Origin: a phage
Reading direction: 5' to 3' (one strand)
Length of the DNA: 3,126 nucleotides
Sequence record: PZ195124.1
Every line of letters starts with the position of its first letter. Position 1 is the first letter of the stretch. The notes beneath the pieces were generated by a model. That model did no database searches, was not told the DNA's origin, and saw only the letters and a program-made list of their open reading frames with translations. Positions 86 through 3,126 of the stretch are shown in pieces. The position numbers were made by a program, and so were the translations under genes.

Positions 86-1258
86 ATGTTTCCGAAGTCC
101 AATATAGACAGAAATTACAAGGTCAAGCTTGTATCTTACGATAAGAAGGGTAGGTTGGTTTCCGACGACTCTTTCGAGCAAGTCGAAAACTACCTCTTTC
201 AAAATCGTTCGAACACGTATAAACCTGGTTATCTCCGTCGTGACTTTCGAAGACCAACAAACTTTTGGAATGGCTTTCGCTATTTCAATCAGCCCATTGG
301 TACCTTCACTCGGAAACTCTCTGATGGTGGGAGACAAGTCGCCGACTATGGTATCGTGAACCCTAATAAGTTCACGGCCAACAGTCAGCACTTGGGGGAC
401 AACATGGTAATTTACCCTGGTCCCTTTTCTATAAATATTGACCAGCGTGCTTCTGTCGAAGTCCTCAATAAACTTTCGCAATCCAACCTCAATATTGGGG
501 TTGCGATTGCTGAAGCTAAGATGACTGCTTCATTACTCGCTAGACAATCTATAGCTCTCATCAGAGCCTACACTGCCGCAAGGCGCGGTAATTGGCGAGA
601 GGTGTTTTCGCAACTCCTCATCTCCGAACACCGTTTCAGAGCTCCCGCTAGGGATCTCGGAGGTCGATGGCTCGAACTGCAGTACGGTTGGTTACCTCTC
701 ATGGGTGATATGAAGGCTGCATATGATTTGCTTACGCAAACCAAATTGCCTGCTTTCATGCCTCTAAGAGTTACCCGAACCGTTGGCGGCACGCATAATT
801 ATAAAGTGCGTAACGTTGAATCTGCAGGGGATACATGGTCTTACAGCGATCGCTTGTCGGTGAATTACCGAATATGGTATTTTATCTCCGATCCGCGACT
901 CGCATGGGCCAGTTCCCTCGGGCTTCTTAACCCTTTAGAAATTTTCTGGGAAAAGACGCCCTGGTCGTTCGTAGTTGACTGGTTCTTACCTGTCGGTAAT
1001 TTGATTGAAGCCATGAGTAATCCTCTTGGTCTCGATATCATATCCGGCACGAAAACCTGGCAACTCGAATCAAAACTTAATGCGACGCTTAAGGCATCGG
1101 GTTGGTCTGGAACTGCAAAGCTGTCTGCGTACGCCAAGGCGTATGACAGGTCAACTTTCTATTCCTTCCCTACTCCTTTGCCTTATGTGAAATCTCCACT
1201 TAGTGGACTTCACTTAGCGAATGCATTAGCCTTAATTAACCAACGCCTGAAAAGGTAA
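86..1258 (+). CDS. mat: Maturation (A / assembly) protein, 390 aa
   Basis: Intact ORF from ATG 86 to TAA 1256-1258. An in-frame TGA at 56-58 closes the frame upstream and no alternative start lies between it and 86. GGAGGA precedes at 77-82. The product carries blocks I recognise from the MS2-family A protein: [81 protein letters not shown] and a C-terminal [24 protein letters not shown]. First gene in the standard mat-cp-rep order. Confidence 0.93.
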
Positions 1259-1262
1259 ATAC

Positions 1263-1279
1263 GGAGTTAGCCATATGGC
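1263..1279 (+). promoter_or_regulatory. Coat-gene ribosome-binding site and small palindrome around the start codon
   Basis: GGAG at 1263-1266 lies 8 nt before ATG 1275. GCCAUAUGGC (1270-1279) is self-complementary, giving a possible 3-bp stem GCC/GGC with loop AUAU that places the AUG in the loop and 3' arm. The stem is weak; a start-codon hairpin is known for MS2 coat but is only suggested here. Confidence 0.4.
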
Positions 1280-1667
1280 AACTTTACGCAATTTCGTACT
1301 CGTCGATAATGGCGGTACGGGGAATGTTACTGTCGTTCCTGTTAGCAATGCCAACGGCGTCGCTGAGTGGCTTTCTAATAACTCACGCAGTCAAGCTTAT
1401 CGCGTGACTGCAAGTTATCGTGCGTCGGGCGCGGATAAGCGCAAGTACACCATCAAACTCGAGGTACCGAAAATCGTTACCCAAGTTGTAAATGGTGTCG
1501 AGCTGCCTATCTCCGCATGGAAGGCTTATGCCTCCATTGACCTGACCATCCCGATCTTTGCTTCTACCGAAGATGTGACTGTTATTTCCAAGTCACTCGC
1601 CGGTTTGTTCAAAGTTGGGAACCCTGTTGCCGAAGCTATCTCTTCTCAGAGTGGCTTCTACGCTTAA
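1275..1667 (+). CDS. cp: Major capsid (coat) protein, 130 aa including the initiator Met
   Basis: ORF ATG 1275 to TAA 1665-1667. The product MATLRNFVLVDNGGTGNVTVVPVSNANGVAEWLSNNSRSQAYRVTASYRASGADKRKYTIKLEVPKIVTQVVNGVELPISAWKAYASIDLTIPIFAS... aligns along its whole length with the MS2 coat protein (FVLVDNGGTG.VTV, ANGVAEW, SNSRSQAY, RKYTIK.EVPK, GVELP, ELTIPIFA, GNP). From memory it is closer to the GA/BZ13 type. Length and position (second gene, 16 nt after mat) fit. Confidence 0.97.
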   Translation: MATLRNFVLVDNGGTGNVTVVPVSNANGVAEWLSNNSRSQAYRVTASYRASGADKRKYTIKLEVPKIVTQVVNGVELPISAWKAYASIDLTIPIFASTEDVTVISKSLAGLFKVGNPVAEAISSQSGFYA

Positions 1668-1858
1668 TGGGTCTGAAAGCAAAACATAAGGAAAACCTAT
1701 GTTCCGATTCACAGAGATCGAAAAGACTCTATGTATGGATCGCACTCGCGATTGTGCTATCCGATTTCACGTCTATCTTCAGTCATTGGATTTGGGGTCT
1801 TCTGATCCTCATTCTCCAGACTTTGATGGACTTGCCTACCTTCGTGATGAATGTTTAA
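1667..1858 (+). CDS. lys: Lysis protein L, 63 aa, single-pass membrane protein overprinted on the coat-replicase junction
   Basis: ORF ATG 1667-1669 to TAA 1856-1858. Its start overlaps the coat stop (UAAUG, 1665-1669) and 1699-1858 overlaps the replicase start in a different frame. The product has a basic N-terminal part (MGLKAKHKENLCSDSQRSKR) followed by a hydrophobic segment LYVWIALAIVLSDFTSIFSHWIWGLLILILQTLM with a Leu-Ser dipeptide (codons 1757-1762), as in MS2 L (LYVLIFLAIFLSKFT). No Shine-Dalgarno of its own, consistent with termination-coupled initiation. Confidence 0.85.
   Translation: MGLKAKHKENLCSDSQRSKRLYVWIALAIVLSDFTSIFSHWIWGLLILILQTLMDLPTFVMNV
1683..1703 (+). promoter_or_regulatory. 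Replicase translational operator hairpin (coat-protein binding site) containing the replicase SD and start codon
   Basis: AACAUAAGGAAAACCUAUGUU folds as lower stem 1683-1688 with 1698-1703, an unpaired A at 1689, upper stem G1690-C1697 and G1691-C1696, and loop AAAA 1692-1695. The replicase AUG (1699-1701) is in the 3' arm and AAGGA (1688-1692) acts as the SD. This matches the architecture of the MS2 operator ACAUGAGGAUUACCCAUGU (bulged A, 2-bp upper stem, 4-nt loop). Confidence 0.8.
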
Positions 1859-3126
1859 CTAAACATCCCTCACTGGGAGACAGTAATTCGGAAGCACGCC
1901 GTAAGGAATTGGCATATGCCAAACTTATGGATAGTGATCAAAGATGCAAAATCCAAAACAGCAACGGATACGACTACTCTCATATCGAGAGTGGCGTACT
2001 GAACGGTATACTCAAGACCGCTCAGGCCCTAATTGCAAACTTGCTCAAGGGTTTTGAATCTCACTTCCTGAACGATTGTTCGTTCTCCAACGGAGCCTCA
2101 CAAGGGTTCAAGTTGCAGGATGCAGCGCCGTTTAAGAAGATCGCTGGGCAAGCAACCGTTACAGCTCCTGCCTATGACATTGCCGTAGCCGCCGTTAAAA
2201 CGTGCGCGCCGTGGTATGTTTATATGCAGGAAACGTATGGTGATGAAACCAAATGGTTCCATCGGGTATACGGCAACGGTTTGTTTTCTGTTCCGAAGAA
2301 CAATAAAATAGATCGGGCTGCCTGTAAGGAGCCTGATATGAATATGTACCTTCAGAAAGGGGCGGGATCTTTTATAAGAAAACGCCTTCGCTCTGTCGGT
2401 ATAGATCTTAACGATCAAACGCGTAATCAGGAATTAGCCCGACTCGGCAGCATTGATGGTTCTCTCGCTACTATTGATCTCAGTAGCGCGAGTGATTCCA
2501 TCTCTGACCGCCTCGTTTGGGACCTGCTTCCTTCACACGTTTATTCATACCTCGCCCGCATTCGTTCATCATTCACTATGATTGATGGCCGTCTGCACAA
2601 GTGGGGTCTATTTTCTACCATGGGTAATGGCTTTACGTTTGAACTCGAGTCCATGATTTTCTGGGCTCTGAGTAAAAGCGTTATGCTGTCCATGGGTGTT
2701 ACTGGCTCATTAGGCATCTACGGTGACGATATAATCGTCCCTGTGCAGTGTGCCCCAACTCTCCTTAAGGTACTATCCGCTGTGAACTTTCTTCCTAACG
2801 AGAGGAAGACATTTACAACGGGTTACTTTCGTGAAAGTTGCGGTGCACACTACTTCAAAGGTGCCGACATGAAACCTTTTTACTGCAAGCGGCCAATGGA
2901 AACCCTTCCCGATGTCATGTTGCTTTGCAACAGGATAAGAGGTTGGCAGACCGTTGGTGGAATGTCAGATCCGCGGCTCTATCCAATTTGGAAAGAGTTC
3001 GCTGATATGATTCCGCCGAAGTTTAAGGGTGGATGCAACCTGGATCGCGATACTTACCTCGTTTCACCGGATAAACCCGGTGTTACTTTAGTTCGTGTCG
3101 CTAAGGTACGTTCTGGTTTTAACCAT
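1699..3126 (+). CDS. rep: RNA-dependent RNA polymerase (replicase beta subunit), 3'-truncated by the window edge; 476 codons present
   Basis: Hand translation from ATG 1699 to 3126 gives 476 codons with no stop: MFRFTEIEKTLCMDRTRDCAIRFHVYLQSLDLGSSDPHSPDFDGLAYLRDECLTKHPSLG ... GIYGDDIIVP ... FLPNERKTFTTGYFRESCGAHYFKG ... GGMSDPRLY. Shared blocks with the MS2 replicase include LQDAAP.KK, GNG.F.VPKNNKIDRAACKEPDMNMYLQKG, SVGIDLNDQ, GSLATIDLSSASDSISDRLVW, FSTMGNGFTFELESMIFWA, GIYGDDII, NFLPNE.KTFTTGYFRESCGAHY.KG and GGMSDPRLY. It is absent from the ORF track only because it lacks an in-window stop. Confidence 0.97.
   Translation, partial: MFRFTEIEKTLCMDRTRDCAIRFHVYLQSLDLGSSDPHSPDFDGLAYLRDECLTKHPSLGDSNSEARRKELAYAKLMDSDQRCKIQNSNGYDYSHIESGVLNGILKTAQALIANLLKGFESHFLNDCSFSNGASQGFKLQDAAPFKKIAGQATVTAPAYDIAVAAVKTCAPWYVYMQETYGDETKWFHRVYGNGLFSVPKNNKIDRAACKEPDMNMYLQKGAGSFIRKRLRSVGIDLNDQTRNQELARLGSIDGSLATIDLSSASDSISDRLVWDLLPSHVYSYLARIRSSFTMIDGRLHKWGLFSTMGNGFTFELESMIFWALSKSVMLSMGVTGSLGIYGDDIIVPVQCAPTLLKVLSAVNFLPNERKTFTTGYFRESCGAHYFKGADMKPFYCKRPMETLPDVMLLCNRIRGWQTVGGMSDPRLYPIWKEFADMIPPKFKGGCNLDRDTYLVSPDKPGVTLVRVAKVRSGFNH
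2719..2730 (+). other. Replicase catalytic motif C (YGDD)
   Basis: Codons TAC GGT GAC GAT at 2719-2730 are in the replicase frame within GIYGDDIIVP. The upstream motif-A-like IDLSSASDS (Asp codons 2476-2478 and 2494-2496) and motif-B-like STMGNGFTFELE (2614-2649) are also read directly. Confidence 0.9.

Follow-up and report, generated by a model that had tools for sequence, protein, structure and literature searches.

A GA-type lysis gene that overprints the replicase start and begins at a UAAUG stop-start junction in a group II RNA coliphage sequence

The UAAUG junction between the coat and lysis (L) genes of phage GA has been a laboratory model of translational coupling for decades. The L gene, its overprinting on the operator and the replicase gene, the UAAUG junction and a coupled translation that does without a Shine-Dalgarno (SD) sequence are already known for GA, where the gene was annotated in 1986. 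In GA coat-UAAUG-L::lacZ constructs, removal of the coat start abolished downstream reading, which excluded free ribosomes (Inokuchi et al., PLoS One 2023, PMC9955659), and no sequence permitted L expression independent of coat translation. About 25% of the coat-translating ribosomes read from the AUG, and a change of UAAUG to UAAua cut downstream reading from 25.5% to 2.2% of the upstream ribosomes. With active ribosome recycling factor (RRF), the AUG frame alone was read (PMC9955659). This work builds on Inokuchi et al. (2000, EMBO J 19:3788). For MS2 and fr, where the stop-start distances are -50 and -38 nt, coupling has been discussed in terms of RNA unfolding and/or backward scanning, with an inhibitory hairpin (PMC12548453).

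The L-like single-gene lysis (Sgl) proteins have been described by a scheme of domains from Chamakura et al. 2017, as relayed in PMC10229422. Domain 1 is an N terminus that carries positive charge, domain 2 is the hydrophobic stretch directly before the Leu-Ser (LS) motif, and domain 3 is the LS itself. When expressed from a plasmid, KU1 Sgl lyses E. coli, and mDAP incorporation is not stopped, as with MS2 L, which makes it type II (PMC10614894). Its toxicity is suppressed by many envelope-homeostasis genes and not by one target (PMC10229422). MS2 L oligomerises via its transmembrane domain (PMC10688784). Because PP7 Sgl has an LS motif and yet targets MurJ (PMC10229422, PMC10614894), the motif can no longer be relied on to predict mechanism.

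The window analysed here is a stretch of 3,126 nucleotides from a phage (sequence record PZ195124.1). By megablast against GenBank phage records, its closest matches over the whole length were BZ13 DL10 (92.8% identity), DL20 (92.5%) and GA (92.3%), and KU1 and T72 showed about 85% nucleotide identity over about 3.1 kb. The only full-length matches were group II F-specific RNA coliphages (Emesvirus japonicum), and the window diverges by about 7% from every group II record in the phage collection (7-8% over the genome as a whole). It extends from approximately GA position 52 to about 170 nt short of the replicase stop. The Pfam families Phage_mat-A, Levi_coat and RNA_replicase_B follow one another in the canonical levivirus order. 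Judged by this genome-wide similarity and by the gene order maturation-coat-(L)-replicase, both of which agree with membership of Emesvirus japonicum, the window is a GA-like group II F-specific ssRNA coliphage. The features discussed below are collected in Table 1.

Table 1. Positions of genes, RNA elements and protein segments in the window
Feature	Position	Strand	Details and basis
Maturation protein gene	86-1258		ORF list and Pfam
Coat protein gene	1275-1667	+	130 codons and TAA; Pfam Levi_coat, 130.2 bits; equivalent annotation in GA, DL10 and DL20
Hairpin in coat 3' end	1632-1658	+	Ends 6 nt before the UAA; GA equivalent annotated
UAAUG stop-start junction	1665-1669	+	Coat TAA 1665-1667, L ATG 1667-1669
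Lysis gene L	1667-1858	+	63 codons and TAA; PF11125, phrog_8450, homology, intact in relatives
L basic N-terminal domain, residues 1-20	1667-1726	+	6 K/R, 1 H, 2 D/E
Replicase translational operator hairpin, putative coat-protein binding site	1684-1702	+	Contains the replicase AUG; inside L codons 6-12
Replicase beta-subunit gene	1699-3126	+	5' 476 codons, runs off the window; Pfam RNA_replicase_B, 715 bits
L hydrophobic helical part, residues 21-63	1727-1855	+	Kyte-Doolittle and AlphaFold model; predicted membrane-active
LS motif, Leu31-Ser32, codons CTA TCC	1757-1762	+	Invariant in 8 aligned L proteins

An earlier sequence-only reading of the window had proposed a 63-aa overprinted lysis ORF that begins on the A of the coat UAA, has no SD of its own and runs in another frame through the operator and the first 160 nt of the replicase gene. 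The anatomy of the locus agrees with this on each point. The junction reads TTAATGG, with one base shared by the coat stop and the L start. The replicase ATG lies 32 nt after the L ATG, and the overlap between L and replicase is exactly 160 nt. Counted as position modulo 3, the coat, L and replicase genes occupy frames 0, 2 and 1, which puts L at +1 with respect to replicase. No SD sequence precedes the L ATG; within the 22 nt before it, the best anti-SD duplex has a predicted energy of -2.7 kcal/mol, a value equal to the median over every 22-mer of the window (50.6th percentile). For the other genes, the corresponding values are -9.5 kcal/mol (maturation), -6.1 kcal/mol (coat) and -6.2 kcal/mol (replicase). 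The L frame is free of stop codons from 1541 onwards, 42 codons upstream of the L AUG, and it contains no in-frame ATG, GTG or TTG between 1541 and 1667 that could be an alternative start. The two marks of GA-type coupling, a UAAUG overlap and an SD-less start with no alternative, are therefore both found in the window.

The UAAUG junction is identical in GA, DL10 and DL20. Between the window and GA the sequence is the same from the UAAUG through 1711, with the first difference at 1712, and in the 30 nt upstream of the UAA the two differ only at 1646, in a hairpin loop, and at 1664. The base at 1664, directly 5' of the UAA, is a T in the window and a G or C in the relatives, and U1664 could alter the coupling efficiency. 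Because the junction is nearly identical to that of GA, we infer the same coupling mechanism for the window, and the published GA experiments at this same UAAUG (PMC9955659) support the termination-reinitiation arrangement that had been expected from the overlap. ORF 1667-1858 is almost certainly the L (Sgl) gene of a GA-type phage, SD-less and read by reinitiating coat ribosomes, and no feature of the window speaks against this. What the sequence shows is the layout of the locus, its homology, the lack of an SD and conservation under dual coding; the coupling mechanism and the lytic activity of the window L are taken over from published work on GA, KU1 and MS2.

In the proposed mechanism, terminating coat ribosomes would be the sole source of L translation at the AUG that overlaps the UAA. 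After peptide release, the ribosome would be freed from the stop codon and would re-engage the AUG, which begins two bases beyond the first base of that stop. L would then be made by a constant share of the coat-translating ribosomes, so that the dose of lysis protein would be tied to cumulative coat synthesis.

A different use of the same AUG is conceivable, in which a fresh 30S subunit initiates de novo and the terminating coat ribosome merely melts RNA structure. This RNA-unfolding model is accepted for MS2 coat/L (PMC12548453), and the window does have structure to be melted: a stable hairpin (1632-1658, -12.8 kcal/mol) lies just upstream, and the minimum free energy fold of a 146-nt segment pairs 1669-1672, which is the G of the AUG and the following GGU, with 1621-1624. 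However, the pairing over the AUG is just 4 bp long, in a fold with an ensemble frequency of 0.0085, and a free 30S subunit would have no SD to bind. The GA experiments exclude free ribosomes and coat-independent L expression, and non-dissociable ribosomes do read from the GA AUG (PMC9955659). De novo initiation at the window AUG is accordingly very unlikely.

The long open stretch upstream of the AUG, from 1541, would also permit ribosomes to shift frame close to the end of the coat gene and in this way to make L fused to coat. Kastelein et al. reportedly once proposed, in 1982, a frameshift model for MS2 L. In the window, no slippery heptamer was noticed when 1541-1667 was inspected by reading as opposed to a pattern search, and in KU1-type genomes, where 18 nt are inserted at the junction, the corresponding site still has a start codon (UUG or AUG). 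In GA, changing the AUG to AUA abolishes downstream expression (2.2% versus 25.5%; PMC9955659), and we consider the chance of a frameshift origin to be negligible. Reinitiation by coat ribosomes at the UAAUG is the reading that is retained in what follows.

The L ORF was intact in 10/10 relatives, with 63-64 codons and a stop at the same place. The relatives were five complete genomes, one IMG/VR copy of GA and five KU1-type contigs from metatranscriptomes and metagenomes. The scan of viral contigs yielded four loci, namely the GA genome itself (L006) and the KU1-type contigs L007-L009, and a metagenome scan yielded two more KU1-type contigs (L010 and L011). No further UAAUG-type genomes were found in these two scans.

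Across six complete genomes, 11/192 sites are variable in L, compared with 23% of the downstream replicase positions. Of the third codon positions of replicase, 4/53 are variable inside the overlap and 199/423 downstream of it (Fisher p = 4.6e-9). This follows from the geometry of the frames, in which the third position of a replicase codon is the second position of an L codon. The overlap has 10 variable sites: one is silent in both frames, three change L only, three change replicase only and three change both. Because the variable sites are split evenly between the frames, this pattern indicates that both the L and the replicase proteins are under constraint in the overlap. At one position, 1759, the window has an A and the five other complete genomes have a G; the difference is silent in L (L31L) and exchanges I21V in replicase.

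These data bear on whether the ORF could be a functionless open frame that arose by chance in the +1 frame of replicase. Its length is indeed unremarkable, for an open +1-frame run of at least 63 codons was present in 81% of codon-shuffled replicase sequences, and ORF length was discarded as evidence for L. The signal for L is homology and conservation. The ORF is kept open in every one of the relatives, replicase-synonymous change is strongly suppressed inside the overlap, the product matches a Pfam family and is homologous to MS2 and fr L, and its homologues are lytic in experiments (PMC10229422, PMC10614894). Conservation and homology already refute a chance origin, which we no longer regard as a serious candidate, and ORF 1667-1858 is treated below as a gene.

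The protein encoded by L matches the Pfam family PF11125 (Phage_MS2_lysis) over residues 6-37 with 29.3 bits and E = 8.9e-7, above the gathering cutoff of 25 bits, and it matches phrog_8450 with E = 1e-32. The L proteins of GA, DL10, DL20, KU1 and T72 share 97-98% identity with it. There is one substitution relative to DL10 (N62S), one relative to DL20 (Q51R) and two relative to GA (Q16E and I49Y). The family match, this identity to group II L proteins and the annotation of the gene in GA, DL10 and DL20 together support the reading as an overprinted lysis gene. The exact L sequence of the window had no match in a gene-position index or in an exact-sequence look-up of contigs. When 5.8 billion sequences were searched with the protein, the BZ13 lysis protein was the one cluster that matched, and the 63-aa query reached no distant homologues. 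Being one substitution away from known variants, the window L provides a data point on tolerated change at Q16, I49, Q51, M61 and N62.

The sequence-only reading had also described the product as a basic N terminus followed by one hydrophobic helix with an LS dipeptide. The basic N terminus is present, with six K/R in residues 1-20, but the single helix was a simplification, though an acceptable one. The hydrophobic stretch, residues 21-63, is 43 residues long and contains no K/R and only two Asp, and the 19-residue Kyte-Doolittle means have two maxima, at 21-39 and 42-60, both of 1.8. A single-sequence AlphaFold model predicts one continuous helix from residue 3 to residue 62, with a mean pLDDT of 81 and values of 89-95 over residues 21-60. 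The segment LYVWIALAIV (residues 21-30) has an 11-residue Kyte-Doolittle maximum of 2.75 and is directly followed by L31-S32, the single LS dipeptide of the protein. In sequence, all three domains of L-like, type II Sgl proteins are found in the window L.

By BLASTP, L is 41% identical to MS2 L over 51 aa (E = 6e-10), with the LS and the LYV...LAI residues aligned. An alignment of eight L proteins (window, GA, DL10, DL20, KU1, T72, MS2 and fr) shows that the block L21-Y-V-x-I-x-L-A-I-x-L31-S32-x-F-T is invariant. Since this block is unchanged from group II to MS2 and fr, the LS of the window L is the homologue of L48-S49 in MS2 L, in agreement with the earlier description of the motif as conserved. 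Part of the similarity between the window L and MS2 L is enforced by the other frame, because much of it lies over the nucleotide-conserved operator and the replicase start. The gene would encode a membrane protein of 63 aa, basic in its N-terminal domain, with the conserved Leu-Ser on a long hydrophobic helix. As a homologue of MS2 L and KU1 Sgl, it would lyse the cell without blocking net peptidoglycan synthesis, as a type II L-like Sgl.

The operator hairpin folds as (((((.((....))))))), with a 7-bp stem, a bulged A and an AAAA loop. The match to the MS2 operator family Rfam RF02359 (at 1682-1702) scores 18.1 bits with E = 0.45, compared with a gathering score of 40, and the AAAA loop may contribute to this low score. 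The GA record annotates the equivalent of the operator, at 1733-1753, as 'pot. binding site coat protein'.

The hairpin that precedes the junction is also annotated in GA, where record X03869 lists a stem-loop at 1683-1707 with a 'potential function in lysis gene control'. Folding of 1630-1660 in the window gave -12.8 kcal/mol (z = -3.6), and 0/200 shuffles were as stable. 10/10 relatives retain the upper stem; in the KU1-type genomes the lower one is disrupted. The 27-nt hairpin has a stability of -11.4 kcal/mol in the window and in GA, which have the UAAUG, compared with -6.6 kcal/mol in KU1-type genomes; among the UAAUG strains, the values range from -7.4 to -11.4 kcal/mol. Among the 10 relatives, the hairpin showed no covariation, with no compensatory change for the broken lower stem of the KU1-type. 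One could speculate that the hairpin tunes the frequency of reinitiation and through it the timing of lysis, its strength co-varying with the type of junction, and that U1664 could further alter coupling. This is one correlation across two clades, and we think such a role doubtful.

Other segments of the window are conserved as well. A block of 93 nt in the coat gene (1292-1384, approximately codons 6-37) is 100% invariant among all six complete genomes of group II. Over positions 1308-1384, the 10 sequences with coverage all agree, and outside the block about 22% of the coat gene sites are variable. Three hairpins are predicted for the block (-31.3 kcal/mol, z = -2.7), and 0/200 shuffles were as good. 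A +1-frame ORF on the plus strand (1309-1407) with an ATG start, which encodes a hydrophobic product of 32 aa, MAVRGMLLSFLLAMPTASLSGFLITHAVKLIA, is intact in all six complete genomes. It has no visible SD-like motif upstream and no PHROG match, and its equivalent in MS2 and fr is cut to 6 codons. A hidden gene in the invariant block was considered and judged to be unsupported; constraint at the RNA level seems likelier.

In the replicase gene, the segments 2101-2160 and 2272-2365 are almost invariant in group II, with one variable site per 60 nt in the bins 2101-2160 and 2281-2340. Segment 2272-2365 is 91.6% identical to many MS2 records by megablast, and no other part of the window matches MS2 records. 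Its fold is mildly better than that of shuffled sequences (z = -2.15). The near-invariant segments could be a conserved replicase motif together with an RNA element.

The KU1-type junctions show further variation. In these genomes (L003 at 1706-1724; L005, L007-L011), the insertion starts with GGCGUAG, the reverse complement of the last coat codons CUACGCC, and the coat UAA would sit in the loop of a 7-bp hairpin. Contig L010 (OGVH01001890.1, positions 375-400) is of the KU1-type with the 18-nt insertion and reads ...CAGUAAUGGG, where KU1 has ...CAGCAUUGGG. Its L starts at an AUG inside a second UAAUG, whose UAA lies in frame with coat, 18 nt beyond the true coat stop, and its L stop is TGA instead of TAA. 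From its sequence, the L010 junction looks like an intermediate between the GA-type and the KU1-type.

Taken as a whole, the locus is a real overprinted gene whose expression logic can be recognised from raw sequence. Its architecture is identical to that of the lysis genes of GA (X03869 / NC_001426; Inokuchi et al. 1986) and of BZ13 DL10 and DL20. In the records of these three phages, the lysis CDS opens with the final base of the coat CDS and comprises 63 codons, the replicase ATG follows at +32 nt, and the L stop is the same. The window lysis gene differs from theirs by point differences only, among them the T at 1664 and the A for G at 1759. The KU1/T72-type genomes resemble the window in having an L protein that is 97% identical and the same overlap with operator and replicase. 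Their junction, however, contains 18 extra nucleotides (UAA GGCGUAGUUCUUCAGCA UUG) that are absent from the window, and L, longer by one codon, starts at a UUG that lies 20 nt downstream of the coat stop's first base (Groeneveld et al. 1996, Virology 218:141).

The L genes of MS2 and fr share with the window a homologous core (LYV-I-LAI-LS-FT), a basic N terminus and a +1 frame relative to replicase. They also cross the operator, and their translation is coupled to coat termination, as is inferred for the window. The MS2 and fr proteins are 75 and 71 aa long, whereas the window L has 63 aa and an N-terminal domain that is shorter by about 16 residues. In both phages the L start lies inside the coat gene, 50 nt from its end in MS2 and 38 nt from it in fr, in contrast to the single shared base in the window. 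The suggestion that the overlap is shorter than in MS2 and that the mechanics of reinitiation may differ is thus correct, and this difference between one base and 50 nt is already present in the literature (PMC12548453).
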